Positions 32,529 to 59,830 are shown, counted from the first letter of the stretch. The stretch is DNA of 64,000 bases from Escherichia coli (GCF_024502345.1 NZ_JALDNN010000003.1); one strand, 5' to 3'. The notes: a model not told the origin generated them from the sequence alone. Made by a program: numbers and translations.

Positions 32529-32536
<8 letters not shown>
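31034..32536 (+). CDS. tnsD: Tn7-like target-selection protein TnsD (TniQ family)
   Basis: 500 aa; blocks HTLFPLYAPF, FRKHRKGFSALQH, YAWLYRHDRHWL, YAESVGEYQIRRL parallel Tn7 TnsD (HTLFPLYAPF, FRKHRKAFSYLQH, YAWLYRHDRDWL, YSESVEDYQIRRI). Confidence 0.85.
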
Positions 32537-34380
<1,844 letters not shown>

Positions 34381-34634
34381 GGGCATCCCGGCTGGCTTGA
34401 CCCCGCCAAGCTAAGAGATGGTGGCAGTTCGTGGATGCCGTTTCCCGGGTGCACGCGATCCGAGACCACGCGATCAAGCAGGAAAACAAGCACCTGGGCT
34501 TGCCTGACTGACCGCAGGCCGGCGACGACAAGGTGGAAAAGTTCGGCGTGTGGCTCTGGCGGCAACGATCCCGCGAAGGGCGGACGGTGCTTGAGCTGTT
34601 GAACGTAAGCGTGCGGGCAGACCGTCTTGCGCGA

Positions 34635-34800
34635 CTATGCCGGATGCCACCTATGCGGCAGCAGCTCTGCAATCTCACTCGCCCGCTGCGTCGGCAACCG
34701 TGTCAGCACATCCTTGAGATAGGCATACGGATCGTGCCCATTATTACGGGCCGACTGGATCAAACTCATGATCGCAGCAGCGCACTTGAGCATGCGATCC
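34635..34800 (-). pseudogene. IS66-family TnpC C-terminal remnant
   Basis: C-terminal ...IMSLIQSARNNGHDPYAYLKDVLTRLPTQRASEIAELLPHRWHPA matches the IS66-family transposase C-terminus; followed on that strand by a GTAAGCG-type terminal repeat near 34605. Confidence 0.5.
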
Positions 34801-35007
34801 CGCGCCGAGCATTTGAGAAGGCAACGGGATGAACGCTGGCTGGATAGCCGTGGTTTTCTGGGTATGCAGCCGAATCCATTTGTGGACGAGGTTGGCATTG
34901 AGGCTGTAGCCCAAGGCGATGTTTGCGATGGAGGCACCGGGTTCAGAACACTCCTGAATGACCTGGGCCTTGAAAGATTTGCTGTAGGTACGGCGCTGAG
35001 GGGGCAT
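34744..35007 (-). pseudogene. IS66-family TnpA-like accessory ORF remnant (element internally deleted; tnpB and most of tnpC missing)
   Basis: MPPQRRTYSKSFKAQVIQECSEPGASIANIALGYSLNANLVHKWIRLH... matches the IS66-family TnpA N-terminal HTH region. Confidence 0.5.
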
Positions 35008-35512
35008 GGAAAATCCGCTTGATGGGCCATGGCCTTCGGCGGCGGTGTCGGGAAGGTGTGTTGGCAGGACGGATACTGTTGAACTACGTTGTCTGGGGCA
35101 ACGGAGGTTTTTCGGCCCGACTCTGGAACGCGATCCGCAGCGACGACTGGGCAATTCCGCACATTGGCCTGAGCAGCCTCGGGGAAATCGTCGGCTGGGC
35201 GCGCCCAGACGAGTTTCCGCCAAGGAACATGCGCACGAGCAAGGGGCTGCGGGCGCTCGGTTACAACGTGAGGATCGGTGTTTGATCTGCGGCCGTGGGC
35301 GGCGCCCGCAAGGTCCCGATCAACCCACCGTCCCCTGCGCCGGACCGGCCCGCCCTGGCATACCGTCCTTGAAGATTTGAGTCACATCAATCGGCCAGCA
35401 GATCGCTGGATGTTGACTCTTGACTTTTGGCATATTAGGCGCAATATCTTGCAAAGTCTTGCAAGAACTTCCTCAGGCGAGGCCGCGTGACGACGGAACT
35501 TGTGGGGGTGGT

Positions 35513-35794
35513 ATGACAGCGCGCCAGCAGGCGATCTTCACACTCGACGAGTTGGCTACCTACTTAAAGGTCGGCAAGCGGACGCTCTACCGGCTCGCCG
35601 CGCACGGGGAGATTCCGGCCTTCAAGGTCGGCGGGACGTGGCGGTTTCGTCAAAGTGAAATCGATCGATGGATCAATGATCAGATCCAAGCAGGCAGAAA
35701 GAAGGAGGTGATACGTACAGATGAGCAGCCGAAGTCAGCGAAACATCCCGTGTTGCCTGGGCGCGCTATCCATAGCCGCAGGCAAACGGAGTGA
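35513..35794 (+). CDS. HTH DNA-binding protein (excisionase/MerR-like), first gene of the LHR/tLPQC-like island
   Basis: MTARQQAIFTLDELATYLKVGKRTLYRLAAHGEIPAFKVGGTWRF: excisionase-family HTH; ATG at 35513. Confidence 0.65.
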   Translation: MTARQQAIFTLDELATYLKVGKRTLYRLAAHGEIPAFKVGGTWRFRQSEIDRWINDQIQAGRKKEVIRTDEQPKSAKHPVLPGRAIHSRRQTE

Positions 35795-35829
35795 GCGAGA
35801 GTCTTCAATTTTTGTTCTGGAGGTGTGAC

Positions 35830-36399
35830 ATGGACATTGATTTCAAGAAGTTGGCTCCCTGGAACTGGTTCAAGAAGGAGCAGGAAGAACAACAGAGCAC
35901 TGCCTCGCTGCCGGTGCAGCGCAATGACCTGCCGGTAGCGGGTGGGCCCGTCAGTCCCATCCTGCAATTGCACCGCGAGATCGACCGCCTCTTCGACGAC
36001 ACGTTTCGAGGCTTCGGCTTTCCGGCGCTGGCCATGCCACGCTGGCCGTCGGACTGGCCGGGCCTGCTGAAGCCGGCGCTGGACATCCAGGAGACCGACA
36101 AGCAGTACAAGATTTCTTTGGAGGTTCCCGGCGTCGAGGAAAAAGACATCCATATCACGCTCGACAACGACGTGCTGCTGGTTCGCGGTGAAAAGCGTCA
36201 GGAGCAGGAAAGCAAAGACGGCGGTTTCCACCGGGTGGAGCGCTCCTACGGCAGCTTTCAGCGCGCTCTGAACCTGCCGACCGATGCCAACCAGGACACG
36301 ATCAAGGCCGCTTTCAAGAACGGCGTACTCACGATCACAATGGAAAAGCGCGAGGCCAGTGCGCCCAAGCAGGGCCGCTCGATCCCGATCAACGGCTGA
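35830..36399 (+). CDS. small heat-shock protein (Hsp20/alpha-crystallin family)
   Basis: ATG at 35830 with GGAGG upstream; alpha-crystallin-domain blocks (ALDIQETDKQYKISLEVPGVEEKDIHITLDNDVLLVRGEK ... GVLTITMEK). Confidence 0.8.
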   Translation: MDIDFKKLAPWNWFKKEQEEQQSTASLPVQRNDLPVAGGPVSPILQLHREIDRLFDDTFRGFGFPALAMPRWPSDWPGLLKPALDIQETDKQYKISLEVPGVEEKDIHITLDNDVLLVRGEKRQEQESKDGGFHRVERSYGSFQRALNLPTDANQDTIKAAFKNGVLTITMEKREASAPKQGRSIPING

Positions 36400-36496
36400 C
36401 GCCGATCGGCTTGTTCTCTACAGAAAAACCAAGTGAATGGCGAGGCGCCGTGACCTTCGGCGCCTCGTCAAATCAGTCCTCTCAAGGAGCATGAGC

Positions 36497-39346
36497 ATGG
36501 CCAGAAAACAATGCCAGGTCTGCGGCCAGCCCGCCACGGTGCGGGTGGAAGCCAATCTCAATGGTCGCCACAGCACCATGCTGTTGTGTGACGATCACTA
36601 TCGCCAACTGGCGCGCCAGCAAAAGCGCACCGTCTCGCCGCTGGAAGCCTTGTTTGGCTCGCGCAGCGGCTTGTTCGAAGACTTCCTCGGCAGCGACTTC
36701 TTCCGCATCGGTGACGATTCGCCGTCCATGGCGGCCGATACCGACGAGGTGGTCGATGCCTCGTTCGGCGAACCCGCCCCGGCCGGTACGGGCACTGCGC
36801 GCCGTCGCGGCAGTGGGCTCGCCAGCCGTATCAGCGAACAGTCCGAGGCCCTATTGCAGGAGGCCGCCCGACACGCTGCAGAGTTCGGGCGCGCCGAAGT
36901 CGATACCGAACACCTGCTGCTGGCGCTATCCGACAGCGACGTGGTGAAGACCATCCTGGGACAGTTCAAGATCAAGGTCGATGACCTCAAGCGACAGATC
37001 GAATCCGAAGCCAAGCGCGGCGAGAAGCCGTTCGAGGGCGAAGTCGGCGTGTCGCCCCGGGTCAAGGACGCGCTCAGCCGCGCTTTCGTGGCCTCCAACG
37101 AACTCGGCCACTCTTATGTCGGGCCGGAGCATTTCCTGATCGGGCTCGCTGAGGAAGGCGAAGGTTTGGCGGCCAACCTGCTGCGCCGTTACGGCCTCAC
37201 GCCGCAAGCGCTGCGCCAGCAGGTAAGCAAGGTGGTCGGCAAAGGGGCCGAGGATGGCCGCGCCGAGACGCCGACCAACACGCCCGAGCTGGATAAATAC
37301 TCGCGCGACCTCACCAAGATGGCGCGCGAGGGCAAACTCGATCCAGTCATCGGCCGTGCGCAGGAGATCGAGACCACCATCGAGGTGCTGGCCCGGCGCA
37401 AGAAAAACAACCCGGTGTTGATCGGTGAGCCCGGCGTCGGCAAGACCGCCATTGTCGAAGGGCTGGCGCAGCGCATGGTCGCCGGTGAAGTGCCCGAGAC
37501 GCTGCGCGACAAGCGTCTGGTCGAGCTCAACATCAACGCCATGGTGGCAGGCGCCAAGTATCGCGGCGAGTTCGAGGAGCGCGTGCAGAAGGTGCTCAAG
37601 GAAGTGACCGAGCACCAGGGCGAGATGATTCTCTTCATCGATGAAGTGCACACCATCGTCGGTGCAGGCCAGGGTGGCGGCGAAGGCGGGCTGGACGTGG
37701 CCAACGTGTTCAAGCCGATGATGGCGCGCGGCGAACTGAACCTGATCGGCGCCACCACGCTCAACGAGTATCAGAAGTACATCGAGAAGGACGCCGCGCT
37801 GGAGCGTCGTTTCCAGCCGGTGATGGTGCCCGAGCCGACGGTAGCGCAGACCATGATGATCCTGCGCGGCCTGCGCGACACCTTCGAGGCGCACCACAAG
37901 GTCAGCATCACCGAGGATGCGATCATCGCCGCCGCCGAGTTGTCGGACCGCTACATCACCGCGCGCTTTTTGCCTGACAAGGCCATCGACCTGCTTGACC
38001 AGGCGGCCGCACGCGTGAAGCTGTCGGCCACGGCTCGCCCGGTGGCGGTGCAGGAGCTGGAGTCCGAACTGCACCAGTTGCGGCGTGAGCAGGACTACAT
38101 GGCCTCGCGCAAGCAGTACGACAAGGCCGCCGAGCTGGGCAAGCGCATCGAGGCCAAGGAGACTGAACTCAAGCAGCTCGTCGAGGAATGGGAACGCGAG
38201 CGCGCCTCGGGCAGCGCCGAAGTCAAGGCCGAGCATGTCGCGCAGATCGTCTCGCGCCTGACCGGCATTCCGGTCAACGAGCTGACGGTGGAAGAACGCG
38301 AGAAGCTGCTGCATCTGGAGCAGCGGCTGCATGAGCGCCTGGTGGGCCAGGACGAAGCGGTGCGCGCGGTGGCCGATGCCGTGCGGTTGTCGCGCGCGGG
38401 CCTGCGCGAAGGCGACAAGCCGGTGGCGACTTTCCTGTTCCTTGGGCCGACCGGCGTGGGCAAGACCGAGCTCGCCAAGGCGCTGGCCGAGTCCATCTAT
38501 GGCGATGAAGGTGCGCTGCTGCGCATCGACATGTCCGAGTACGGGGAACGCCATGCCGTGGCACGCCTGGTGGGCGCGCCTCCGGGTTATGTGGGCTATG
38601 ACGAGGGCGGCCAGCTCACCGAGAAGGTGCGTCGCAAGCCCTACAGCGTGTTGCTGCTCGATGAGATCGAAAAAGCGCACCCCGACGTCTACAACATCCT
38701 GCTGCAGGTGTTCGACGACGGGCGGCTCACCGACGGCAAGGGCCGGGTGGTGGATTTCACCAATACCATCATCATCGCCACCTCGAACCTGGGCTCGGAC
38801 ATCATCCAGCGTCGGCTGAAGGCCGGTGGCGCCGCCGGCGAGGAATACGAGAAGACCAAGTCCGAGGTGATGGACGTGCTGCGCGGACACTTCCGCCCCG
38901 AGTTCATCAACCGCATCGACGAGATCATCGTCTTCCATGCGCTGGGCAAGGAGGAAATCCGCCATATCGTCGGCCTGCAGCTTGATCGTGTGGCCCGCAA
39001 CGCCGCCAGCCAGGGCGTGACGCTGACCTTCGATCAGACCTTGATCGACCACTTCGCGGAGGAAGGCTACAAGCCCGAGTTCGGCGCGCGTGAGCTCAAG
39101 CGGCTGATCCGCAGCGAGCTGGAAACCGCGCTGGCGCGCGAGATGCTGGGTGGCGGTATCGGCAAGGGTGATCACGCCAACGCCCGCTGGGACGACAAGG
39201 CCGAACGGGTGGTCTTCGAGCGCCAGGAGCCACCCGCGAAGTCGGCTGAGCCTGAAAAGCCCGATGCCGCGGACGTGGCCGAGGCACCGCCTGGCGACGC
39301 GAGCAAGCCTGCGCGCAAGAAGAAGTCAGCGGATGGCGAATCTTGA
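36497..39346 (+). CDS. clpK: ClpK/ClpG-type Clp ATPase (stand-alone disaggregase) with N-terminal zinc-ribbon-like motif
   Basis: ~950 aa; N-terminal CQVCGQPA...CDDHY; two AAA+ modules ([15 protein letters not shown] and [15 protein letters not shown]); matches the LHR ClpK / tLPQC ClpG architecture. Confidence 0.85.
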
Positions 39347-40793
39347 GCGATGGGAGGCTGTCGTGTCCGACCCCAATGGGCTGACATGGGCAGCCACCCT
39401 CGTGTCGCTGGCGGTCGCTATCCCCACAGCGGGGCATGCGGTCATCTACAAGCGTGACCCTCGATCGGCCACGCTGTGGGTACTGCTGATCGCCTTGCTG
39501 CCGCTGGGCGGTTCGCTGCTGTATGGGCTGTTCGGCATCAACCGTTACCAGCGGCGGGCGCGGCGGCTCTTCCCGGGGGCAGATCCTGCTGTTCGGCAGG
39601 ATCTCTCGCCCACGATACCCGAGGCTGTATCGCCGCCACTTGCCGGTCTGGCCCACCTGGTGGGACGCGCCACCGGCCAGTCGCTGACCGGCGGCAACCG
39701 CATCGAGCCGCTTGTCGATGGCGAGCAGGCCTACCCGGCCATGCTCGCCGCCATCGAATCGGCGCGGTACAGCGTCGCCTTGACCTCGTACATCTTCGAC
39801 AGCCAAGGTATCGGGGCGCAGTTCGTCGATGCGCTGCGCCGGGCTCATGAGCGCGGCGTGCAAGTGCGGGTGCTGATCGACGACGTGTATGCCCGCTGGA
39901 CGCCCCGCAGCGCCTACCGCGCCTTGCAGCGCGCCGGCGTTCCGGCGGCGACGTTCAACCCTACATTGATTCCCGCGCGCCTGCATGCCGCGCATCTGCG
40001 CAATCACCGCAAGCTGCTGGTGATCGATGGCGAGACGGGTTTCACCGGCGGATTGAACATCTTCAGCCCGTACTGGCGGCCCGATGCGCCGGACCAGGCC
40101 TGTCACGATTTGCACTTTCGTCTGCGCGGGCCGGTGATTGCGCATCTGATGCGGTGCTTCACCGATGATTGGTGCGATACCACGGGCGAGCGGCTCAGCA
40201 AGGGTTACTGGGGCGAACCGCCCGTAACGGCTGATGAGCAAGGAACCTCTTGGGCGCGCGGCATCGAGGCCGGTCCCGATGAGGCCCTGGACCGGATGCG
40301 CTGGACCTTCATGGGCGCTTTGAGCGCCGCGAAGCATTCGGTGCGCATCTGGACACCTTACTTCGTCCCCGATCAGCCGATGATCGCGGCGCTAAGCACG
40401 GCCGCGTTGCGCGGCGTGCGTATCGACGTGCTGACGCCCGCAAACGGCGACCATCCCACGGTGCAATGGGCCGCGCGCGCCCACTACTGGCAGGTGCTGG
40501 AGCACGGTGTGCGCATCTTCGAACGGCCTGGCCCGTTCGACCACAGCAAGCTGATGCTGGTAGACGGAGCGTGGTGCTGCCTGGGTTCGGCCAATTGGGA
40601 TGCACGCAGTTTGCGCCTCAACTTCGAGTTCAATGTGGAGGTGTACGACACCGCGTTGTCTACGCGGCTGTCATCCCTTTTTGATGCCGCTCGTGATGCG
40701 TCGGGCGAGATATCGGCGAAGGCGTTGCGCGCCCGCCCGCTGGCCATCCGCTTGCGCGACGGGGTGGCCCGTCTGTTCACCCCCATTCTCTAG
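39333..40793 (+). CDS. phospholipase D / cardiolipin synthase-family protein (two HKD motifs)
   Basis: HKD motifs HRKLLVIDGETGFTGGLN and HSKLMLVDGAWCCLGSANWDARS; N-terminal TM segments; start (ATG 39333 or GTG 39363) overlaps the clpK 3' end. Confidence 0.8.
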   Translation: MANLERWEAVVSDPNGLTWAATLVSLAVAIPTAGHAVIYKRDPRSATLWVLLIALLPLGGSLLYGLFGINRYQRRARRLFPGADPAVRQDLSPTIPEAVSPPLAGLAHLVGRATGQSLTGGNRIEPLVDGEQAYPAMLAAIESARYSVALTSYIFDSQGIGAQFVDALRRAHERGVQVRVLIDDVYARWTPRSAYRALQRAGVPAATFNPTLIPARLHAAHLRNHRKLLVIDGETGFTGGLNIFSPYWRPDAPDQACHDLHFRLRGPVIAHLMRCFTDDWCDTTGERLSKGYWGEPPVTADEQGTSWARGIEAGPDEALDRMRWTFMGALSAAKHSVRIWTPYFVPDQPMIAALSTAALRGVRIDVLTPANGDHPTVQWAARAHYWQVLEHGVRIFERPGPFDHSKLMLVDGAWCCLGSANWDARSLRLNFEFNVEVYDTALSTRLSSLFDAARDASGEISAKALRARPLAIRLRDGVARLFTPIL

Positions 40794-40820
40794 CGACACG
40801 ACTTGCGAGGAACATTGCCC

Positions 40821-42650
40821 ATGGAAAAGAAAGATCAATGGAACATAGGCTACTGGATCGTCGCCGGCCTGTTGCTGCTGACGCTGCAGAACTACTGGCA
40901 GGCGGCCAAGACCGTCGAGCCCGTGCCCTACAGCGAATTCGAGAAGGCGCTGGCCGAGGGGCGCGTCGCCGAAGTGCTGGTGTCGGACCGCACGGTCACC
41001 GGGCACCTGAAATCGCCGGACAGCCGGGGCAAGACCACCATCGTGGCCACCCGTGTCGAACCCGACCTGGCCGAGCGGCTGTCCAAGTACGACGTGCCCT
41101 ATGCGCGGGTGGTGGAAAGCACCTGGCTGCGTGATGTGCTCTCCTGGATTCTGCCGGCGGTGGCCTTCTTCGGCGTCTGGTTCTTCCTGTTCCGCCGCTT
41201 CGCCGAGAAGCAGGGCATGGGTGGCTTCCTGAGCATCGGCAAGAGCCGTGCCAAGGTATTCATGGAGAAGAACACTGGCGTGACCTTTGCCGATGTCGCT
41301 GGCGTCGATGAAGCCAAGGCGGAGTTGGTTGAGATCGTCGATTTCCTCAAGAATCCGCAGGAGTATGGACGGCTCGGGGCGCGCATTCCCAAGGGCGTGT
41401 TGCTGGTCGGCCCACCGGGCACCGGCAAGACATTGCTGGCCAAGGCTGTTGCCGGCGAGGCGGCGGTGCCCTTCTTCTCCATCTCCGGATCAGAGTTTGT
41501 CGAGATGTTCGTCGGCGTGGGTGCAGCGCGCGTGCGCGACCTGTTCGAGCAGGCCCGCGGGCAGGCGCCGGCCATCATCTTCATCGACGAGCTCGATGCG
41601 CTGGGCCGCGCGCGCGGCGTCGGCGGCCCCATCGGCGGCCACGACGAGCGCGAGCAGACCCTCAACCAGCTGCTCACGGAGATGGACGGCTTCGACAGCT
41701 CGGTCGGGCTGATCATCCTCGCCGCCACCAACCGCCCCGAAATCCTCGACCAGGCGCTGCTGCGCGCCGGTCGCTTCGACCGTCAGGTGCTGGTGGACCG
41801 GCCCGACAAGAAGGGACGGCTGGACATCCTGAAAGTCCACGTCAAGAAGGTGACGCTGGCTCAGGATATCGATCTCGAACAGGTGGCTGCGCTGACCACG
41901 GGCTTTTCGGGTGCAGACCTCGCGAACCTGGTCAACGAGGCCGCGCTGGCCGCGACCCGGCGCAAAGCGTCCGCCGTGGAGTTGCAGGATTTCACCGCCG
42001 CCATCGAGCGCATCGTGGCGGGCCTGGAGAAGAAGAACCGCGTGCTCAATCCCAAGGAGCGGGAAACCGTGGCCTATCACGAGATGGGCCATGCGCTGGT
42101 GGCGCTGGCGCTGCCCGGCACCGACCCCGTGCACAAGATCTCGATCATCCCGCGCGGCATCGGCGCGCTGGGCTACACGCTGCAACGCCCCACCGAAGAC
42201 CGCTTCCTGATGACGCGCGCCGATCTGGAACACAAGATCGCCGTGCTGCTGGGCGGTCGTGCGGCCGAGAAGCTCGTGTTCGGCGAGCTGTCCACCGGGG
42301 CTGCCGATGACCTCGCACGGGCCACCGACATTGCCCGCGACATGATCACCCGCTTTGGCATGGACGAAGGACTGGGCTACATCGCCTTCGAGGCGCAGCG
42401 GCCACGCTTTCTCGATACACCGGAACTGGCCCACGGCGGCTGCCGGGTGGCCGAATCGACCCAGGCGCGCATCGATCAGGCCATCCGCGACATCGTGATG
42501 GGCGTGTTCGAGCGCGCCTACCGGATCCTCGACACCAACCGCGCGGTGCTGGAGCGTTGTGCGCGCGAACTGCTGGCGCGGGAAACGCTCGACGAGAACG
42601 ACATCCTTCAATTGACCCAAGGACTTGTTCTAGATAGAAACGAAAAGTAG
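40821..42650 (+). CDS. ftsH: FtsH-family ATP-dependent zinc metalloprotease
   Basis: AAA module [23 protein letters not shown], Walker [10 protein letters not shown], zinc-binding HEMGHALVA; two N-terminal TM helices. Confidence 0.85.
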
Positions 42651-42728
42651 TAGGCGCTATTCAGAGTGAGCCGGCGGCTCTGTTCGGTGCGTCATCCAAT
42701 TCGCCGGCATTGTTCAAGGAGAACCGAT

Positions 42729-43187
42729 ATGTCTGCATTGACTCCGTGGGACCCCTTCCGGGAACTGGATGAATTGCAAAACCGCCTGGCGACGATGTTG
42801 GGACGGACACCCCAGCGACAGGGCGCCCGTACCGGCAACGAAGCCCTGACCACGGCGGACTGGGCACCAATGGTGGACATCAGCGAGGATGAGAACGCAT
42901 TCCTCCTCAAGCTGGATCTGCCGGAGGTCCCCAAGGATGCCGTGCGCGTCAGCGCGGAAAACGGCGTGCTCACCATCAGCGGCGAGCGCAAACTGGAAAA
43001 AGAGGAGCAGGGCAAGAAATTCCACCGCATCGAACGTGCGTATGGCCGCTTTGTGCGCAGCTTTGTCTTACCTGACAACGTTGATCCGACCAAGGTGACG
43101 GCTTCGATGAAAGACGGCGTGCTGGAAGTGCGGCTTGTCAAGGCCGAGCAAGCCAAGCCGAAGCAGATTGAAATTTCAGTCAATTAA
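42729..43187 (+). CDS. small heat-shock protein (Hsp20 family), second copy
   Basis: ATG at 42729 with AAGGAG upstream; alpha-crystallin blocks (AFLLKLDLPEVPKDAVRVSAENGVLTISGER ... GVLEVRLVK). Confidence 0.8.
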   Translation: MSALTPWDPFRELDELQNRLATMLGRTPQRQGARTGNEALTTADWAPMVDISEDENAFLLKLDLPEVPKDAVRVSAENGVLTISGERKLEKEEQGKKFHRIERAYGRFVRSFVLPDNVDPTKVTASMKDGVLEVRLVKAEQAKPKQIEISVN

Positions 43188-43208
43188 CTTCAATTGGAGT
43201 CCAACATC

Positions 43209-44117
43209 ATGAATATCAAACAGCCCCAATACATCCGTTCCGCACTTGCCCTGGCGGTCTGCATCGGACTGAGTGGACCGGTTTTGGCCCAATCGGCGGC
43301 AAGTCCAAGCGCTGCAGCGCCCTCTGTCGCACCCAAGGCGGCGCAGCCACAAGTAGACGACAAGGCCGCCCAGGAAGCCGAAAAAAAGCGTTCCGAGCTC
43401 ACTCAGGACGCCATCACGGCGCTCACCAAGACCCAGGAGGCTTTGACCCTCCTTGATGCAAATAAGACCAAGGAGGCGCTCGCTGCGCTGGAACTGGCCA
43501 CCGGAAAGCTGGAACTGGTATTGGCACGCGACGCCAAACTTGCTTTGGCGCCGGTCGATGTACGCGTCATCACCCATGATATCCACGCCAACGTGGAATC
43601 GGTAAAGAAAGCGGTCAAGTTGTCTCGGGAGTTGTTGGGTGATGGCGAGGTGCAAAAGGCCCGGCCCATCGTTGCCAATCTGGCCAGCGAAATCGTGATC
43701 GAAACCGACAACCTGCCCATGGCAACGTACCCGGCAGCGATCAAGTCGGCTGCACGGCTCGTCGACAGCGGCAAGATCGACGAAGCCAAAGCAGAGCTCG
43801 CCCGAGCACTGAACACGCTGGTGGTCACCCAAGTTGTACTCCCTCTGCCCGTGCTACGGGCCGAAGCCGCGATAGCAAAAGCTGAAAAGCTGGCCGAGAC
43901 TGACAAGCGCGATGCCAAGCAGAACGAGGAGCTCAGCACCTTGCTGTCGTCCGTGCGCACGGAGATCGAGCTGGCGCAAATCCTGGGTTATGGCAAGAAG
44001 GAGGACTTCAAACCCATCTTCGATCAGGTGAAGTCCATTGAGCAAAAGTCGGCTGGTGGCAAAAGCGGCAATGGATGGTTCGACGAGTTGAAGACGCGCA
44101 TCCAAAAGCTGTTTTGA
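43209..44117 (+). CDS. yfdX: YfdX-family periplasmic protein (copy 1)
   Basis: Signal peptide; paralogous to the next ORF (shared blocks LALAPVDVR..I.HD, LASEIVI, IDEAKA/IEEAKA, VLPLPVLRA, ILGYGKKEDF/LLGYGKRKDF); arrangement matches the yfdX1-yfdX2 pair of LHR-type loci. Confidence 0.7.
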   Translation: MNIKQPQYIRSALALAVCIGLSGPVLAQSAASPSAAAPSVAPKAAQPQVDDKAAQEAEKKRSELTQDAITALTKTQEALTLLDANKTKEALAALELATGKLELVLARDAKLALAPVDVRVITHDIHANVESVKKAVKLSRELLGDGEVQKARPIVANLASEIVIETDNLPMATYPAAIKSAARLVDSGKIDEAKAELARALNTLVVTQVVLPLPVLRAEAAIAKAEKLAETDKRDAKQNEELSTLLSSVRTEIELAQILGYGKKEDFKPIFDQVKSIEQKSAGGKSGNGWFDELKTRIQKLF

Positions 44118-44219
44118 GGTGATGAAGGGGCCGACTGCTCCATCGGTCAGTCTCGCGATATTCGCAGTCGGCCCCAATAGATTCCCCTATTTTCACTATC
44201 TCATACGAGGCATATCACC

Positions 44220-45107
44220 ATGAATGAGCAAACATCGAATCCCAACGCGATCAACGAAGGCACGAACGAACAGGCCGCGGTAAGCAGCCTTCCTGCCAGA
44301 CCAGAGCCCAAGCCTGAAGTCGTCACGGAGGTACAGCCTGAGGTTCAGAAGGAAACGGACTCGCAGGCGGCAGACAAACGTAAACAAGTCCTCGATGAGG
44401 CCGTCTCGGCCTTGGCGCTGACCAAATCAGCGCTGGCGGCCCTGGACGAAAAAGAATCCGCGCGAGCACTGGCAACGCTGGCCGAAGTGACGGGAAAGCT
44501 GGAGCTGATCGTTGCACGCGAACCCACGCTCGCCCTGGCCCCCGTTGATGTGCGCACCATCGTGCACGACTTGTTCGCCAACACGGAAACCATTGAGGCG
44601 ATGACCGACGAGGCGCTGGATGCCCTCAAACATGGCGAGGTGCAACAGGCTCGCCACGTGCTGGCTTTGCTGGCCAGTGAAATCGTGATCACGGTCACCA
44701 ACATCCCTCTGGCGTCCTATCCCGCAGCCGTGAAGGCAGTCGTGCCGCTGATCGATCAGGGCAAGATCGAAGAAGCCAAAGCCGCGCTGCAGTCAGCGCT
44801 CAGCACGCTGGTCGAGGAGCGCAGCGTGCTTCCGCTGCCCGTCCTGCGTGCGAAGCTGCTCCTGAAGCGCGCCGAGCCTCTGGTAGAAGATGGTCAGCGC
44901 AGCGAAGCATCCAATGAGCGCCTGGAGACATTGTTGAACGAAGCCCGGCAGCAGTTGGAAATGGCAGAACTGCTGGGCTATGGAAAAAGGAAGGACTTTG
45001 AGCCCCTGTACGCTGAACTCAAGAAAATCAAGGAAAAGACGGGAGGGGGAGGCTTCGGAAAAGGCTGGCTCGATGAAGTCAAGGCAAAACTGTCCAGGTT
45101 GTTCTGA
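44220..45107 (+). CDS. yfdX: YfdX-family protein (copy 2)
   Basis: Paralogue of 43209..44117 with the same conserved blocks. Confidence 0.7.
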   Translation: MNEQTSNPNAINEGTNEQAAVSSLPARPEPKPEVVTEVQPEVQKETDSQAADKRKQVLDEAVSALALTKSALAALDEKESARALATLAEVTGKLELIVAREPTLALAPVDVRTIVHDLFANTETIEAMTDEALDALKHGEVQQARHVLALLASEIVITVTNIPLASYPAAVKAVVPLIDQGKIEEAKAALQSALSTLVEERSVLPLPVLRAKLLLKRAEPLVEDGQRSEASNERLETLLNEARQQLEMAELLGYGKRKDFEPLYAELKKIKEKTGGGGFGKGWLDEVKAKLSRLF

Positions 45108-45196
45108 AACCGCTGGAGAGGGGGCGCATAGTGCCCCCTCTCTTGTCCCATGAGTGTTTGATTTTTTATTTTGTATAGATCTTTAGGAGATATTGC

Positions 45197-45808
45197 ATGA
45201 ACACAGACACCATCACCGATTCCAGTGCGGATGACCCCACCAAAGCACTGTGTTCGCTTAGCCAAAATTGGTGGCTTTTTGTGCTGCGCGGTGTCTTGGC
45301 ATTGATTTTTGCAGCCCTCGCGTTCTGGATGCCACAATCGGCTCTGTTGGCCATGACCATCATGTTCGGCGCATTTTCCTTGGTCAATGGCGCGTTCAAC
45401 TTGTTTGCAGCGGTGCGCCATATCCAGAAAAAAGAGCGCTGGGGCTGGTTGTTGTTCAGCGGCATTGTCGGCATACTTACGGGCGTCGTCGTCCTGGTTG
45501 CTCCTTGGGTCGCCACGATAGTCCTGGCTTCTTTTTTATGGGCTAGCGTGGGCTTCTGGGCGATTTTCACCGGTGTGCTGGAGATATCTGCCGCCGTTCG
45601 GCTGCGTCGGGAAATCAAGGGTGAAATCTGGCTTGCCCTCAGTGGACTGCTCTCGATTATCCTTGGTGCTATCGTCTTGTGGATATTTTTTACCCGCCCG
45701 GTCGAGTCATTCGTGGCCGCAGGCTGGCTGTTGGGTTTCCATGCGGCAGTCTATGGCGTCACGCTTTTGTTCTTGAGTTGGAGTCTTCGCAAAACGCGCC
45801 AGGGGTAA
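45197..45808 (+). CDS. hdeD: HdeD-family acid-resistance membrane protein
   Basis: 203 aa, multi-TM (WWLFVLRGVLALIFAALAFWMP..., GWLLFSGIVGILTGVVVLVAPW...); position after yfdX as in LHR-type loci. Confidence 0.7.
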   Translation: MNTDTITDSSADDPTKALCSLSQNWWLFVLRGVLALIFAALAFWMPQSALLAMTIMFGAFSLVNGAFNLFAAVRHIQKKERWGWLLFSGIVGILTGVVVLVAPWVATIVLASFLWASVGFWAIFTGVLEISAAVRLRREIKGEIWLALSGLLSIILGAIVLWIFFTRPVESFVAAGWLLGFHAAVYGVTLLFLSWSLRKTRQG

Positions 45809-45887
45809 GAGCGTGCCAAACCAAAATCTATGGATATGAGCATCCTCGATTCATGCCTCCATAGAAATGACATCGAAGGAGTCATAC

Positions 45888-46562
45888 ATGCAGATACAAT
45901 ATAGCTATCGAGCTATCGACAAAGAGTTTCATGAACCTTGGCAGAGAGCTTTGGGAAATGTGATCGAGCACGCCCTCAAGCCATTGCTCGACAAACACAC
46001 TAAAGATTCAGCGCGACTTCAAATCGTCCTTGATCGCGACAAGATCAAGCGGCAATTTCTGGCCAGTGGCTATATGCACCTGCCCGGCAAAAAGATTGTC
46101 AGTGTTACTGCATCACATGACGAGCTGACGCCCCTCGCGCAGATGCTCGCAAAGTCGTTGTTCCGTCAGGCCAAGAAGCATTTTGACCGACTGCATGCTC
46201 AGGATCAAATCAAGCGCAAAGCACGACGCGAGCGCTTGCGCGAGCTCAAGGTGCGGATTGCCGCAAAACCCGCATCAGCCGCCCATGAGGCCGAGGTGAT
46301 CCGAATGCCTCTACTGTCGAAACTTGAGGCTGTCGCAAGGCGTGAGCTGGCTTATCTGCGGGCCGTCGGCGATTTACCGCGCGATTATCCGACGCTGCGC
46401 GACGTGGTGGATGAAGCGATTGTCCAAGCTGAGGTGGAATGGCAATCCGTGCCGGAAGAAAAAGCGGTTCGGTATAAGACATGGGGGCAGCACCGTACCG
46501 GAAAGGTCAGGTGTTGCACTCAGTTTTTGCCGCCGCCAAGCATCAACCAGATAATCCGATGA
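45888..46562 (+). CDS. hypothetical protein (224 aa)
   Basis: ATG at 45888 with AAGGAG 6 nt upstream (track ORF begins 21 nt earlier); no recognised domain. Confidence 0.5.
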   Translation: MQIQYSYRAIDKEFHEPWQRALGNVIEHALKPLLDKHTKDSARLQIVLDRDKIKRQFLASGYMHLPGKKIVSVTASHDELTPLAQMLAKSLFRQAKKHFDRLHAQDQIKRKARRERLRELKVRIAAKPASAAHEAEVIRMPLLSKLEAVARRELAYLRAVGDLPRDYPTLRDVVDEAIVQAEVEWQSVPEEKAVRYKTWGQHRTGKVRCCTQFLPPPSINQIIR

Positions 46563-46645
46563 GATGCCGGTCTGTCTCACTCTCATGCAAAGGTAAGATC
46601 AACCATTTAATCCGCTTACCCCAGAATAATAGGGAGTGCATATAA

Positions 46646-47557
46646 ATGCATTTTTTGAATTTGCAGGTCACACAGGCAGAGCTCCTATCCGGCCTTATTT
46701 CCGTTTCCCAAACAGTTGCACAGATTGTGCTCGTCATGACCGTGGCGTGGCTCGTGTCCGCAGTGCTTTCGCGGGCCATCACACGCATCAGCAAAAGAAC
46801 CCGCACTTCCAAGAGATCTGCAGATGAGGTCAAACGCATTGAAACATCTCTTCGTCTGATCCGTTTCGTCAGTCGGCTGGTCGTGTGGGCCTTGGCCGTG
46901 ACCATTTCCCTCTCAATCCTTGGCATTTCTGTGGCACCGATCCTGACGACTGCGGGGGTAAGCGGCATCGCAGTGGGGTTTGCTGCGCAGAGCCTGATAA
47001 AAGACTATTTTTCGGGTTTGGTCTTGTTGCTGGAAGGGCAACTCCGCATCGGGGATATCGTGGATATTGGCGGTGTGGCAGGCCAAGTCGAAGAGATGAC
47101 GTTGCGCTATGTGCGCCTGCGTCAACTCAATGGTGACGTGGTCTATGTGCCCAACGGAGCCATCACCAATCTGACAAATAAGACAACGGACTATTCGATG
47201 GCCGTAATCGATGTCGGTGTCGCCTATCGCGAAAACCTTCAGGAGGCATTGAACGTTATGGAGAGTGTCGCCCGTGAGCTAGCTTCGGAAACAACCTGGT
47301 CAACGAGAATATTAGCCGAGCCAGAGGTCTTTGGGGTCGAAACGTTGGGTGACTCTTCGGTTATCCTGCGTCTTCGCCTCAAGGTCTTGCCAGGTGAGCA
47401 ATGGTCAATCCGGCGCGAATATCTGCACAGGATAAAACAGCGCTTCGACGAACTTGGCATCGAAATCCCTTATCCGCATCTGACGCTTTATGCCGGCCAG
47501 GACAAGGATGGAAAAGCCCCTGCCTTTCGGATCGAAGCTCCGGCTGGTGCCCAATGA
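46646..47557 (+). CDS. MscS-family small-conductance mechanosensitive channel
   Basis: 303 aa; TM helices followed by the MscS-type block GDIVDIGGVAGQVEEMTLRYVRLRQLNGDVVYVPNGAI; stop lies 11 bp before IS26. Confidence 0.7.
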   Translation: MHFLNLQVTQAELLSGLISVSQTVAQIVLVMTVAWLVSAVLSRAITRISKRTRTSKRSADEVKRIETSLRLIRFVSRLVVWALAVTISLSILGISVAPILTTAGVSGIAVGFAAQSLIKDYFSGLVLLLEGQLRIGDIVDIGGVAGQVEEMTLRYVRLRQLNGDVVYVPNGAITNLTNKTTDYSMAVIDVGVAYRENLQEALNVMESVARELASETTWSTRILAEPEVFGVETLGDSSVILRLRLKVLPGEQWSIRREYLHRIKQRFDELGIEIPYPHLTLYAGQDKDGKAPAFRIEAPAGAQ

Positions 47558-47568: not shown

Positions 47569-48388
47569 GGCACTGTTGCAAATAGTCGGTGGTGATAAAC
47601 TTATCATCCCCTTTTGCTGATGGAGCTGCACATGAACCCATTCAAAGGCCGGCATTTTCAGCGTGACATCATTCTGTGGGCCGTACGCTGGTACTGCAAA
47701 TACGGCATCAGTTACCGTGAGCTGCAGGAGATGCTGGCTGAACGCGGAGTGAATGTCGATCACTCCACGATTTACCGCTGGGTTCAGCGTTATGCGCCTG
47801 AAATGGAAAAACGGCTGCGCTGGTACTGGCGTAACCCTTCCGATCTTTGCCCGTGGCACATGGATGAAACCTACGTGAAGGTCAATGGCCGCTGGGCGTA
47901 TCTGTACCGGGCCGTCGACAGCCGGGGCCGCACTGTCGATTTTTATCTCTCCTCCCGTCGTAACAGCAAAGCTGCATACCGGTTTCTGGGTAAAATCCTC
48001 AACAACGTGAAGAAGTGGCAGATCCCGCGATTCATCAACACGGATAAAGCGCCCGCCTATGGTCGCGCGCTTGCTCTGCTCAAACGCGAAGGCCGGTGCC
48101 CGTCTGACGTTGAACACCGACAGATTAAGTACCGGAACAACGTGATTGAATGCGATCATGGCAAACTGAAACGGATAATCGGCGCCACGCTGGGATTTAA
48201 ATCCATGAAGACGGCTTACGCCACCATCAAAGGTATTGAGGTGATGCGTGCACTACGCAAAGGCCAGGCCTCAGCATTTTATTATGGTGATCCCCTGGGC
48301 GAAATGCGCCTGGTAAGCAGAGTTTTTGAAATGTAAGGCCTTTGAATAAGACAAAAGGCTGCCTCATCGCTAACTTTGCAACAGTGCC
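47569..48388 (+). mobile_element. IS26 copy 2
   Basis: 820 bp with 14-bp IRs GGCACTGTTGCAAA / TTTGCAACAGTGCC; Tnp identical to copy 3 in translation. Confidence 0.95.
47632..48336 (+). CDS. tnpA: IS26 transposase Tnp26
   Basis: 234-aa IS6-family transposase beginning MNPFKGRHFQRDIILWAV. Confidence 0.95.
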   Translation: MNPFKGRHFQRDIILWAVRWYCKYGISYRELQEMLAERGVNVDHSTIYRWVQRYAPEMEKRLRWYWRNPSDLCPWHMDETYVKVNGRWAYLYRAVDSRGRTVDFYLSSRRNSKAAYRFLGKILNNVKKWQIPRFINTDKAPAYGRALALLKREGRCPSDVEHRQIKYRNNVIECDHGKLKRIIGATLGFKSMKTAYATIKGIEVMRALRKGQASAFYYGDPLGEMRLVSRVFEM

Positions 48389-48709
48389 GAAGAAACAACC
48401 GCGTACTGGATGATTACCCCACCAAAAGGGAAAATATTAGGCGTTGTCAAAGGGAAACCTGCGTGGGTTGATATTCCTCCGCCAACACAGGAAGAGCTGA
48501 TCCAGGTCGCTGAGCGTGAGAAAAAGCGACTAATTAATGTGGCTAACGACTTCATTAATAGTAAACAATGGCCTGGTAAAGCGGCAATCAAACGACTGAA
48601 AGACAATGAACTGGTGCAATACAATCTGTGGCTTGATTATCTTGATTACCTTGAATCAACAGACGCATCAACAGCACCTGATATTGACTGGCCTGAGATG
48701 CCAATATAG
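48389..48709 (+). pseudogene. phage tail-fibre assembly protein (Tfa) C-terminal fragment, 5' end removed by IS26
   Basis: C-terminal ...LWLDYLDYLESTDASTAPDIDWPEMPI matches the conserved Tfa C-terminus (..VDTSTAPDIEWP..) recalled from memory; reading frame abuts the IS26 end. Confidence 0.6.
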
Positions 48710-48819
48710 GAACCTTTTGTGGATTGAGATTTTTAATGTCAGCGAAGCTCTTCGTCAAAAGTGAAACTCTGATAACCTGGTTCTACTGACGAACAGAAGG
48801 ATAAGCAGGAGATCGCTTT

Positions 48820-49380
48820 ATGATTATTGGGTATGCACGAGTATCAAGTAACCATCAGGACACCGAGCTTCAGATGCAGGCGCTCAGAGCTGCTGGCTGT
48901 AAGTTAATTTTTGAGGAAAAGGCTTCTGGCCGTAAGACGAACCGACCAATTTTGAAGAAAGTGGTTGAGATGCTTGAACCCGGTGACGAGCTGGTCATCT
49001 GGAAGCTGGATCGTATCGGTCGCAATGTGCTGCACGCATTATTGACGTTTCAGAGCCTCGCAGAACGCAATGTTAACATCCGTTCTATTACTGATGGCGT
49101 TGACCTGAGTACCGCCAGTGGGCGCTATAACTTCCGTAATATTCTCTCTGCGGCACAATATGAGTCTGATCTGAATAGTGAACGCACTTTGGCGGGGTTA
49201 GCGGTTGCCCGCGCTAAGGGGAGGATTGGCGGACGTAAGCCTAAGTTCACTAATGAGCACTGGGATGCGTTTGAACGGGAAATTAAGTCCGGCTGCTCAC
49301 ATCGTGATATAGCTCTCAAATATGGAGTCGGCCTGTCGACTCTCTACAAACGTTATCCGGCTCAGCAAGAGCATCAGTAA
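48820..49380 (+). CDS. serine recombinase, DNA invertase family (Gin/Hin/Pin-like)
   Basis: 186 aa; MIIGYARVSSNHQDTELQ ... GRIGGRKPKF ... LSTLYKRYPA parallels Mu Gin (MLIGYVRVSTNDQNTDLQ ... GRIGGRPPKL ... LSTLYKKHPA). Confidence 0.85.
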   Translation: MIIGYARVSSNHQDTELQMQALRAAGCKLIFEEKASGRKTNRPILKKVVEMLEPGDELVIWKLDRIGRNVLHALLTFQSLAERNVNIRSITDGVDLSTASGRYNFRNILSAAQYESDLNSERTLAGLAVARAKGRIGGRKPKFTNEHWDAFEREIKSGCSHRDIALKYGVGLSTLYKRYPAQQEHQ

Positions 49381-49389
49381 ACACTCTTT

Positions 49390-49500
49390 GCGTTCATTTT
49401 TGCACTGTGCAGAATGTGTCTTTTTGGCACCTTCCGACAGTGCAAAATTTATCGCGTTTTTGTGCAAAAAAAATCGCCGCGCTACAAAACGTGTGCTATA
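49390..49500. repeat. cluster of TTTTGCAC-containing repeats in both orientations (possible Mu-like transposable-phage end sites)
   Basis: TCATTTTTGCACTGTGCAG, CGACAGTGCAAAATTT and GTTTTTGTGCAAAAAAAATCGC lie just downstream of the invertase gene; related motif recurs near 52410-52475; coordinates approximate. Confidence 0.35.
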
Positions 49501-49622
49501 CTTGTGCTCATGCGGTTGGATTTCCTATCCCCCCGACCCGCGCTGCGGCGGGCCGAAAAATCCCAGGGATGGGTTTTTTCGGTGTTTTCCTCGTTGGCAC
49601 ATTCAAGAGTAAGGAGCGTTCC

Positions 49623-50231
49623 ATGAAGCTGTATTACACCCCCGGCGCCTGTTCCATGGCCCCGCACATCGCCCTGCGCGAAGCCGGCCTGAAATTCGAC
49701 CTGGAAAAGGTCGACCTGATGACCAAGAAAACCGAATCGGGCGCCGACTTCACCGCCATCAATCCCAAAGGCTACGTGCCGGCGCTGCAGCTCGACAACG
49801 GCCAGGTGCTGACCGAGGTCGGCGTGGTGCTGCAATACATCGCCGACCAGAAGCCGGGCAGCGGACTGGCCCCGGCCGCCGGCACGCTCGAGCGCTACCG
49901 CCTGATGGAGATGCTGAATTTCATCTCCACCGAGCTGCACAAGAACTTCGGTCCGCTGTTCAACCCGGCGGCCGGCGACGACGCCAAGAAAGCAGCCATC
50001 GAGATGATCGGCAAGCGCCTTGGCTACCTCGACCAGCAGCTGGCCGGCAAGCAGTATCTGCTCGGTGACACCTTCACGGTGGCCGACTGCTACCTCGCCA
50101 CCATGCTCGGCTGGTGCCAGTACGCCAAGCTCGACCTGTCGGCCTGGCCGAACATCGGCGCTTACGCCGGCCGCGTGATGAGCCGCCCGGCGGTGATCGA
50201 GACGATGAAGGCCGAAGGCCTGATGGGCTGA
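49623..50231 (+). CDS. glutathione S-transferase
   Basis: ATG at 49623 with AAGGAG upstream; 202 aa; GST N- and C-terminal domain blocks (MKLYYTPGACSMAPHIALREAGL..., DTFTVADCYLATML); high GC. Confidence 0.8.
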   Translation: MKLYYTPGACSMAPHIALREAGLKFDLEKVDLMTKKTESGADFTAINPKGYVPALQLDNGQVLTEVGVVLQYIADQKPGSGLAPAAGTLERYRLMEMLNFISTELHKNFGPLFNPAAGDDAKKAAIEMIGKRLGYLDQQLAGKQYLLGDTFTVADCYLATMLGWCQYAKLDLSAWPNIGAYAGRVMSRPAVIETMKAEGLMG

Positions 50232-50314
50232 GGGCCACCTGCCGATGCGGCGCGGGTCACGCCCGCGCCGCACGGCGTCAATCCATACCCCCCATCGATT
50301 CCCCAGGAGCCCCC

Positions 50315-51106
50315 ATGCTCGTCGAACGCATCTGGACCGGTAATTCGTACCGCAACTTCAACTACCTGATCGCCTGCCCCGAGACCGGCGAAGCGCTGGC
50401 GATCGATCCGCTGGACCATGAAAAAACCCTGAACACGGCCAGGGTCAAGGGCTGGCAGATCACGCAGATCCTCAACACGCACGAGCACCACGACCACACC
50501 GGCGGCAACGCGGCCGTGGTGGCGGCCACCGGCGCCAAGGTGATCGCGCACCACAAGGCCGCGGGCAAGATCGAAGGCATGGACCGCGGCGTGAAGGCCG
50601 GGGACGTGATCAAGGTCGGCCGGCACATCGAACTGGAATGCCTGGACACGCCCGGCCACACGATGTGCCACATCTGCCTGCGCTCGCACACCGACGAGCC
50701 GGCGCTGTTCTCCGGCGACACGCTGTTCAACGCGGGCGCGGGCAACGTGCACTACGGCGGCAGCGTGGACGAGCTCTACACCACCTTCGTGCAGCAGCTC
50801 GCGAAGCTGCCGGAGAACACCCGCGTCTACCCGGGGCACGACTACATCGAGAACAACCTGCGCTTCACGCTCGCGCGCGAGCCCGGCAACGCGGCCGCGC
50901 AGGCATTGCTGCCGCGGGTGACCGGGCATGACCCGGCCACTTCGGTGGTCACCACGCTGGCCGAGGAGAAGCGCTTCAACACCTTCTTCCGCCTGGCCAG
51001 CCCCGAGGTGATCGCCAAGCTGCGCGAGAGCTTTCCCGAGCTGCCGGAACAGCCCGACGCGAAGACCGTGTTCACCAAGCTGCGCGAGCTGCGCAACCAG
51101 TGGTGA
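50315..51106 (+). CDS. MBL-fold metallo-hydrolase (hydroxyacylglutathione hydrolase / glyoxalase II-like)
   Basis: ATG at 50315 with CAGGAG upstream; metal-binding motif THEHHDHTGG; ~263 aa; high GC. Confidence 0.75.
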   Translation: MLVERIWTGNSYRNFNYLIACPETGEALAIDPLDHEKTLNTARVKGWQITQILNTHEHHDHTGGNAAVVAATGAKVIAHHKAAGKIEGMDRGVKAGDVIKVGRHIELECLDTPGHTMCHICLRSHTDEPALFSGDTLFNAGAGNVHYGGSVDELYTTFVQQLAKLPENTRVYPGHDYIENNLRFTLAREPGNAAAQALLPRVTGHDPATSVVTTLAEEKRFNTFFRLASPEVIAKLRESFPELPEQPDAKTVFTKLRELRNQW

Positions 51107-51151
51107 GCAGCGGCCGGCGCCGGCCCCTTACTTCAGCGTGAACCGCACGGT

Positions 51152-52165: not shown

Positions 52166-52399
52166 GGTGGCAACAGCGGTTAACAGTGGTTTTGCCAACG
52201 TTGCGAGGCAGCGCTGCGCCTGTCACCGCCAAAAACGGGTCATACCGAAAAATCTCGGGCAACTGGCTTTGAGAAATCAACCCAGCAGTCCCCTGTGTGC
52301 ATGCCTGAGACGCCCCAAACTGTGGGGAGGTGATCGTTTTTGCATGGGGGAGAGGTCTTGATAAAATGCCGGGAGGGCTTGCGGTAAGCGAGATTGAGA

Positions 52400-52480
52400 G
52401 AAAAACTGAGTTTTGCACTACTAAAAAAGAAATGAGAAAAAATAGCTATTTTTGCGTTTAATTTTGCACTTTTATGAAAG
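52400..52480. repeat. TTTTGCAC-containing direct repeats upstream of the Mu-like c/ner module (possible transposable-phage left-end sites)
   Basis: GAGTTTTGCACTACTAAAAAAGAAA and TAATTTTGCACTTTTATGAAAG about 45 bp apart; same core motif as the 49.4-kb cluster; coordinates approximate. Confidence 0.3.
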
Positions 52481-52582
52481 TCTTTAGATCCGTTTTAAAG
52501 ACCGTTTAAGCATTTATCAATGCCAGGCACTATACCGTATAGTAGGTTGGTATGTAAGAAGTTGGCTCTGACACCATCTAGC

Positions 52583-59789: not shown

Positions 59790-59830
59790 GCTTACGGACC
59801 GACGCCAGCTTGCAGCGTCGGTCGCAAGTT

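Follow-up and report, generated by a model that had tools for sequence, protein, structure and literature searches.

What is the gene cluster at positions 35513-47557 of a 64,000-nucleotide stretch of Escherichia coli DNA (GCF_024502345.1, NZ_JALDNN010000003.1; the whole stretch is called the window below), and how did it come to lie between the transposition genes of a Tn7-like element and a copy of the insertion sequence (IS) IS26? An earlier reading of this DNA (the original prediction) had likened the cluster to the heat-resistance and protein-quality-control islands of Enterobacteriaceae and Pseudomonas and had suggested that it may be cargo of the Tn7-like element. Our analysis indicates that the cluster is very probably an island of the type known as locus of heat resistance 2 (LHR2) or transmissible locus of stress tolerance 2 (tLST2), truncated by IS26 and contained in a Tn7-like element that has kept one of its ends. 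This degree of confidence covers both identity and structure; that in the predicted phenotype is lower.

Identity of the island and its IS26 boundary

The listing of open reading frames (ORFs), NCBIfam and Pfam models, and the annotation of 100%-identical public records agree on eleven co-directional + strand genes in the interval (Table 1). The predicted order, from a helix-turn-helix (HTH) gene through hdeD to a hypothetical ORF and an MscS-type channel gene, was borne out gene by gene, positions included, as was the description of the genes as GC-rich and co-directional: GC content is 0.58-0.68 over 35-45 kb versus 0.39-0.52 in the plasmid backbone at 1-26 kb, and the entire 27-45 kb stretch is GC-rich relative to the backbone. 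The triplet of the 'dna' (HTH) gene, the gene for the small heat-shock protein (sHsp) sHsp20 and the ClpK gene is present and GC-rich; this triplet is the tLST core, named 'dna-hsp20-clpG' in a review (PMC8290217). The window ClpK scores under the NCBIfam cut-offs for ClpG, ClpB and ClpA. The envelope module genes for sHsp-GI, YfdX1 (the PscA of PMC8407380), YfdX2 and HdeD-GI are all present and carry AMRFinderPlus names at 95-99% identity. NCBIfam gave no hidden Markov model match for YfdX1, YfdX2, HdeD or orf11, and these identities were settled by Pfam and pairwise comparison.

Alignment to reference LHR/tLST sequences upheld the proposed likeness to such islands and identified the variant as LHR2/tLST2. 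LHR2 was defined by four ORFs that are not in LHR1: a cardiolipin synthase gene (orfA), a mechanosensitive channel gene (orfC) and the orfD that follows it, which together interrupt orf11 in its middle, and the GGDEF gene orfE (Boll et al. 2017, PMC5383660). The window has an intact orfA, an intact ftsH-GI and orfC (MscS) inside orf11; orfD and the GGDEF diguanylate cyclase gene orfE are absent from it, and both are distal to the IS26 breakpoint in intact tLST2. Three genes of the original prediction, for a phospholipase D/cardiolipin synthase-like protein, a hypothetical protein and an MscS channel, are the published LHR2-specific orfA, split orf11 and orfC (PMC5383660). The truncated orf11 is identical to the intact 381-aa orf11 at 189 of 192 residues (98%) in a pairwise comparison, and its homology with an island that has no orfC ends at 46464.

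The same gene order is found in the LHR2 type plasmid pFAM21805 of E. coli FAM21805 (KY416992), in Salmonella Senftenberg ATCC 43845 plasmid pSSE-ATCC-43845 (CP016838, the tLST2 reference) and in Klebsiella pneumoniae plasmid pVA684-388. From the HTH gene to orfC, order and sequence agree with LHR2/tLST2 at 99.5-99.8% identity, and positions 26408-47568 of the window are colinear with the Senftenberg element at 99.68% identity. After orfC, complete relatives go on with orfD, trx-GI, kefB, the GGDEF gene, psiE, an HtpX-like protease gene and a DegP-like protease gene, whereas in the window IS26 and unrelated DNA take the place of orfD, the 3′ part of orf11, trx-GI, kefB, orfE, psiE, the HtpX-like gene and degP. 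ClpK also differs slightly in length, with 953 aa in pFAM21805 and 949 aa in the window. About 12.1 kb of the 19,324-bp tLST2 reference (CP016838:190579-209902, coordinates from PMC8290217) is retained, or 63%, at 99.5% identity. A survey that scored a genome as tLST-positive required at least 80% coverage of a reference variant and at least 90% identity (PMC12603250), and the window island is below that coverage. Comparison with LHR1/tLST1, as found in E. coli AW1.7 and the E. coli C chromosome, gives a different picture. The HTH, sHsp20, ClpK, sHsp-GI, YfdX1, YfdX2 and HdeD genes are common to tLST1 and the window, as is conserved IS debris on the 5′ side at about 97% identity. In contrast, tLST1 has only remnants of cls, a truncated or frameshifted ftsH, and an intact orf11 without MscS; it keeps the distal genes from trx through kefB, psiE and htpX to degP; and it has neither tns genes nor the distal Tn7-like end.

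The gap between the MscS stop codon and IS26 copy 2 is exactly 11 bp, as originally described, and homology to intact tLST2 ends at 47568, right at the IS26 inverted repeat. The 8-bp flanks of this IS26 copy differ (GGCCAAAA versus GAAGAAAC), and the DNA on its 3′ side is unrelated to tLST. Since the flanks are not duplicated and the DNA beyond is unrelated, we regard this as a deletion or rearrangement junction and not as a simple insertion. The distal module, comprising trx-GI, kefB-GI, psiE-GI and the HtpX-like and DegP-like proteases, is absent from the whole 64-kb window, in line with the earlier remark that trx, kefB, psiE and degP are missing from it.

IS26 occurs three times in the window, at 11787-12606, 47569-48388 and 53743-54562, with copy 1 inverted relative to copies 2 and 3. 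No 8-bp flanks match, either within any copy or between copies, which argues for repeated IS26-mediated rearrangement and not for simple insertions. The island was also considered as an IS26 composite or pseudo-compound transposon, or as a translocatable unit; this was rejected, as copies 1 and 2 are inverted and there are no target duplications.

Predicted function of the remnant

Single deletions of sHsp20, clpK, sHspGI, pscA (yfdX1), pscB (yfdX2) and hdeD in tLST1 lower heat and chlorine resistance, and deletion of kefB lowers chlorine resistance only (Wang et al. 2021, PMC8407380). All six genes that are individually needed for heat and chlorine resistance are intact in the window, and kefB is gone. 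In addition, Li et al. (2020, PMC7010813) showed that a fragment termed F1 (sHsp20, ClpK and sHsp-GI), or F1-2, clears heat-induced aggregates no less effectively than the full LHR, and that F1 makes cells more resistant to pressure. The remnant would thus have kept two of three functional modules. Its protein-homeostasis module appears complete, with the sHsp20 holdase, ClpK as a stand-alone disaggregase and sHsp-GI, alongside FtsH-GI and cardiolipin synthase, which are both intact; YfdX1, YfdX2 and HdeD-GI make up an envelope module that likewise appears complete; and the module for oxidative stress, chlorine and distal proteases, KefB included, is gone. By analogy with the published islands, we think it on balance probable that the remnant is partly functional, so that its host would show suppressed heat-induced protein aggregation, some (probably intermediate) tolerance of heat and pressure, and weakened chlorine protection unless a second, complete tLST is present. 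Such a second copy does exist in at least one host lineage: in strain 0H23 a complete chromosomal tLST1 coexists with the plasmid-borne remnant and could supply the functions that the remnant has lost.

Several points weigh against a partly functional remnant. Mercer et al. (2015, PMC4563881) reported that a single LHR fragment left strains sensitive to heat and that resistance was only moderate in two natural isolates whose LHR is truncated, so the remnant may give little heat resistance alone. The published deletion data concern tLST1 and not tLST2. Finally, a scan of 34100-36600 for sigma-70 promoters returned 0 sites by the criteria of the tool, and expression of the island is therefore assumed from its identity with functional islands; terminator-like hits in the same scan were uninformative. 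A search of 26000-48500 with Rfam models at E-values up to 0.1, which would cover, for example, RNA thermometers 5′ of the sHsp genes, gave no match.

An alternative that we regard as possible, though clearly less probable than partial function, is that the truncated island is a non-functional relic, deprived of its distal module and its own terminator, which gives no measurable tolerance and hitch-hikes on the plasmid. The heat sensitivity of partial LHR clones and the moderate resistance of natural truncated LHRs (PMC4563881) would fit a relic, as would the possible redundancy of the remnant in 0H23 beside a complete chromosomal tLST1 and the fitness cost of tLST expression (PMC8290217). However, none of the eleven retained ORFs is disrupted and plasmids from several sources show 100% conservation of the region, every one of the six genes individually required for heat resistance is present, and F1 or F1-2 alone suffices to clear heat-induced aggregates and raise pressure resistance (PMC7010813).

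The Tn7-like element and its insertion site

The tnsA-proximal end of the element carries repeats of the form TAAAGNWTCATCC at 26421, 26441 and 26461, which abut each other at 20-bp spacing; the paired terminal sequence of the two ends of the element is TGTGGGATGCAAATAAA. Many related records start their homology exactly at 26408. A Tn7-like transposon has two inverted ends, and the window copy has the tnsA-proximal one only: no second, inverted end was found in the 64-kb window, whether up to 3 mismatches were allowed or the repeat motif was loosened. Complete relatives show what the second end looks like. The element in pSSE-ATCC-43845 is 28,898 bp long with a GCTGC target duplication on both sides, that in pVA684-388 is 27,964 bp long with an ATTCC duplication, and that in pFAM21805 spans about 40 kb, including a later insertion, with a CATGT duplication. 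All three have matching inverted termini and perfect 5-bp target duplications, each at a different site, and these three independent insertions argue that the element has been mobile. Their distal end lies 522 bp beyond degP and contains three dispersed repeats, whereas the tnsA end has three packed ones, an asymmetry known from Tn7. Between tnsE and the distal end they contain tLST2 and later insertions and no other cargo, which identifies the island as cargo of a Tn7-like transposon.

The resemblance to prototype Tn7 extends to five tns genes grouped at one end in the Tn7 order, TnsB, TnsD and TnsE proteins homologous to those of Tn7, TGT...ACA termini, TnsB-type repeats packed at the tnsA end and dispersed at the other, and 5-bp duplications in the complete relatives. 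The differences are that the cargo here is a stress-tolerance island and in Tn7 a class 2 integron, that the proteins of the window are diverged (TnsE, for example, matches in its C-terminal domain only, at E 1e-10), and that the window copy has one end. Tn7 transposition needs both ends in a TnsB-bound paired-end complex. By this analogy the remnant, with five intact tns genes and a single end, would be unable to excise or insert as a Tn7-like unit. The proposal that the island is Tn7-like cargo was therefore right in kind, as the complete elements in three plasmids attest, but the copy in the window is one-ended and would no longer be a mobile Tn7-like unit. In PLSDB, matches to the distal 400 bp of the complete element extend to 42 Acinetobacter plasmids and to several other genera, which suggests that related Tn7-like ends are widespread outside Enterobacteriaceae.

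It could be argued that the island merely adjoins the Tn7-like element and was brought in separately by the IS remnants at 34.2-35.5 kb. As was originally noted, only IS debris separates the tns genes from the island, with 34152-35512 holding only transposase remnants, and this debris is also found beside tLST1 copies without tns genes. Nevertheless, separate arrival is very improbable, given that in three plasmids the distal inverted end lies past degP with the whole island between both ends, that a perfect 5-bp duplication bounds each element at a different site, and that the interval holds only tLST2 and later insertions.

The element interrupts a gene with an HNH-endonuclease motif in an IncHI1-type plasmid backbone. 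The outside flank reads ...cacggACACC, and the uninterrupted site in plasmid R27 reads ...cacggACACC followed directly by GTTAAAACG. The truncated 5′ part of the HNH gene lies at 26034-26407 (R27 locus 3235-4041) and is annotated as a hypothetical protein in related records; the right half, as known from R27, is not in the window. The window copy has its single end with the flank ACACC, and the 5-bp duplication is seen in the three relatives. From these features we infer the following history. A Tn7-like element of roughly 28.9 kb, its cargo entirely LHR2/tLST2, would have inserted into the HNH-endonuclease gene of the IncHI1-type backbone. An IS26-mediated event would then have removed the distal 7.7 kb and adjoining backbone DNA, and with them orfD, the rest of orf11, trx, kefB, the GGDEF gene orfE, psiE, the HtpX-like protease gene, degP and the second transposon end. 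What remains would be the tnsA-proximal 21.2 kb (73%) of the element at 26408-47568, a one-ended remnant that would now move only with its plasmid or through IS26-driven rearrangement. One result speaks against this history: the intact ancestor that it predicts at the IncHI1 site, represented by a synthetic junction of distal end, ACACC and R27 flank, was not found in PLSDB, which leaves the order of events at this site as one that we infer.

Insertion at the chromosomal attTn7/glmS site was considered and rejected, as the sole chromosomal copy examined, in E. coli EC2001, proved to be a piece of IncHI1 plasmid integrated into the chromosome and not a glmS insertion. This copy (NZ_CP133811.1, locus 10741-36135) has the identical IncHI1 left junction, an orf11 that is intact without MscS, and the genes from trx through degP; its distal transposon end is missing.

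The truncated form is shared by other genomes. Several complete, independently assembled IncHI1-type plasmids of E. coli, of Canadian, US and Australian origin, agree with the window at 100% identity from 35000 to IS26, and a 641-bp probe for the MscS/IS26 junction matched in full in 12 of 5,426 closed E. coli genomes (nine plasmids and three chromosomes). On sequence grounds this junction is to be read as a single ancestral event inherited in a plasmid lineage. Repeats such as IS26, of which the window has three copies, often cause misassembly, and the contiguity of tns genes, island and IS26 might have been an artefact joining unrelated contigs; this is less credible still than separate arrival, since the stretch from tns genes to island is repeat-free and colinear with complete elements in several closed plasmids, and the exact junction recurs in those 12 independently closed genomes from Canada, the USA, Australia and elsewhere. 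The original prediction had allowed for such an assembly error, and the identical junctions exclude it.

It had also allowed for the genes being ordinary clpB, ftsH and ibpA paralogues, a condition that failed on the NCBIfam cut-offs. ClpK scores 812 bits against the enterobacterial ClpB model PRK10865 (cut-off 1417), FtsH scores 547 bits against the E. coli-type FtsH model PRK10733 (cut-off 1008), and the sHsps score below 30 bits against IbpA/IbpB models with cut-offs above 200 (28.5 versus 212 for IbpA). These scores mark the ClpK, FtsH and sHsps of the window as island-specific xenologues and not housekeeping paralogues. A chance cluster of housekeeping paralogues (clpB, ftsH, ibpA/B, clsA) is the least credible explanation of all, for although ClpK, FtsH and the sHsps match the ClpB, FtsH and IbpA/B models at significant E-values, all scores are far under the curated equivalog cut-offs, ClpK passes the ClpK-specific exception model, the GC content of the cluster is 62-68% versus about 50% for E. 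coli, and the cluster is 99.5-100% identical to named LHR2/tLST2 islands.

Table 1. Coordinates (window positions) and supporting evidence for the Tn7-like element, the island and the IS26 copy that bounds them
Feature	Position	Strand	Evidence or remark
tnsA-proximal (right-type) transposon end	26408-26475	+	Terminal sequence TGTGGGATGCAAATAAAG and three TnsB-site-like repeats
tnsA, 275 aa, intact	26528-27355	+	ORF; heteromeric transposase endonuclease subunit TnsA in identical records
tnsB, 686 aa, intact	27369-29429	+	Full-length match to Tn7 TnsB, PDB 7pik, E 5e-187
tnsC, 536 aa, ATP-binding protein, intact	29422-31032	+	ORF and annotation of identical records
tnsD, 500 aa, intact	31034-32536	+	Residues 3-301 match Tn7 TnsD, PDB 8glu, E 1e-46; PGAP TnsD family
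tnsE, 540 aa from TTG (526 aa from alternative annotated start 32571), intact	32529-34151	+	C-terminal domain matches Tn7 TnsE, PDB 5d16, E 1.6e-10
Spacer between tnsE and HTH gene: transposase and IstB-like remnants, 264-nt hypothetical ORF	34152-35512		Annotation of related records
HTH/excisionase-type DNA-binding protein, 'dna' gene opening the tLST core	35513-35794	+	TIGR01764, 56 bits (cut-off 28.8)
sHsp20 (holdase), orf2	35830-36399	+	NCBIfam and annotation of identical records
ClpK (ClpG-GI type stand-alone disaggregase), 949 aa	36497-39346	+	NF033606, 2152.9 bits (cut-off 1900), model positions 1-949 of 949
Cardiolipin synthase (cls, orfA)	39363-40793	+	TIGR04265, 291.8 bits (cut-off 290)
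FtsH-GI, intact	40821-42650	+	TIGR01241 (generic FtsH family), 779 bits (cut-off 600)
sHsp-GI	42729-43187	+	NCBIfam; AMRFinderPlus shsP 97.4% in identical records
YfdX1 (PscA), periplasmic chaperone-like protein	43209-44117	+	Pfam YfdX, E 1.2e-33
YfdX2 (PscB)	44220-45107	+	Pfam YfdX, E 6.3e-40
HdeD-GI membrane protein	45197-45808	+	Pfam DUF308 repeats; AMRFinderPlus hdeD-GI 99% in identical records
orf11′, hypothetical ORF, 231 codons	45867-46562 (feature list start 45888)	+	N-terminal 192 aa of orf11, then unrelated tail
orfC, MscS-family mechanosensitive channel, last retained island gene	46646-47557	+	Three MscS Pfam domains
IS26 copy 2	47569-48388	+	Cuts island and transposon at 47568/47569

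Plasmid surroundings, proposed spread of the island and significance

Just past IS26 copy 1, at 12808-17956, a plasmid accessory region contains an MlaD-family ATP-binding cassette transporter cluster (permease, ATPase, MlaD and auxiliary lipoprotein) and a gene for L-serine ammonia-lyase. Between the directly oriented IS26 copies 2 and 3, positions 48389-53742 encode a serine recombinase, a GstA glutathione transferase, a GloB-like hydroxyacylglutathione hydrolase and a fragment of an IS91/ISCR-type transposase; GC content is about 0.67 at 50-52 kb, part of the segment is 99.9% identical to an Azonexus hydrophilus plasmid, and the segment is a candidate IS26 pseudo-compound transposon. Positions 54563-64000 hold chromosomal-type genes (DmsB/DmsC-like molybdoenzyme subunits, uspG, rnk, a hydrolase, a flavin reductase, RNase I, citT, citG and citX). 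Identity is 100% with NZ_LR890350.1, the closest related plasmid, and no more than about 79% with the E. coli chromosome, which makes another enterobacterial genus their probable source. NZ_LR890350.1 also has an annotated rpoH, the gene for the heat-shock sigma factor, at locus 10331-11188, beside IS5 and in an IS26-bounded segment; it is curious to find this gene on the same replicon as a heat-resistance island. The rpoH segment is not in the window, where 1-12606 joins 12607 onward directly.

At about 97% identity, positions 34490-35287, within the IS debris, recur as the conserved flank on the 5′ side of chromosomal tLST1 islands, and about 100 E. coli chromosomes match only this segment, their tLST1 copies being without tns genes. 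Beyond degP, tLST1 copies share only 78 bp with the transposon-borne form. These observations would fit an origin of tLST1 by decay of a transposon-borne ancestor, although they do not prove it. A broader proposal is that the tnsABCDE Tn7-like transposon is the primary vehicle spreading tLST2 among the conjugative plasmids of Enterobacteriaceae, plausibly via the TnsE pathway, and that tLST1 and tLST3, which have no tns genes, and one-ended remnants are its decay products. The TnsE pathway favors conjugal plasmids. The three target-duplicated insertion sites are on plasmids typed as conjugative (IncHI2, IncF and IncR-type); this, together with the 5′ IS debris and the 78 bp past degP in common with tLST1, is the reason for the proposal, which we offer as a tentative one. 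In the same tentative spirit, the window remnant could be near a 'minimal' island, since none of the genes individually needed for heat resistance is missing from it.

LHR-syntenic genes together with the diguanylate cyclase gene tdcA have been described on a Tn7-like transposon in Pseudomonas aeruginosa CF39S (Almblad et al. 2021, PMC8012707). That element resembles the present one in carrying LHR-syntenic cargo on a Tn7-like transposon, and tdcA is of the same class as the GGDEF gene orfE of tLST2. It differs, as far as a comparison by description goes, in being chromosomal and in Pseudomonas, and the window copy has no GGDEF gene. A Tn7-like vehicle for the island, which had been expected to be notable, is therefore already published (PMC8012707), and Tn7 flanks are mentioned in passing in a review (PMC8290217). 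A 2025 survey of 48,183 genomes catalogued tLST2 sub-variants and did not mention transposons (PMC12603250). Our literature search, which was incomplete, found no paper in which the ends of the enterobacterial element and its target duplications are given, or in which tLST is combined with Tn7-like elements or clpK with tnsABCDE, and we make no claim of novelty. The feature is a known island variant on a known type of vehicle, in a truncated form already in public genomes.

tLST/LHR islands let E. coli, Klebsiella and Salmonella survive heat treatment at 60 °C, high pressure and chlorine, and their presence on large conjugative plasmids matters for food safety, water treatment and persistence in hospitals. 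Surveys requiring at least 80% coverage miss an island such as this one, at 63%, even though it keeps its disaggregase and envelope modules. The locus also illustrates how a Tn7-like transposon that bears such an island may become fixed on its plasmid once IS26 removes one end. Neither the survey gap nor fixation by loss of one end changes the current understanding of these islands, and the feature is chiefly of use for their annotation.

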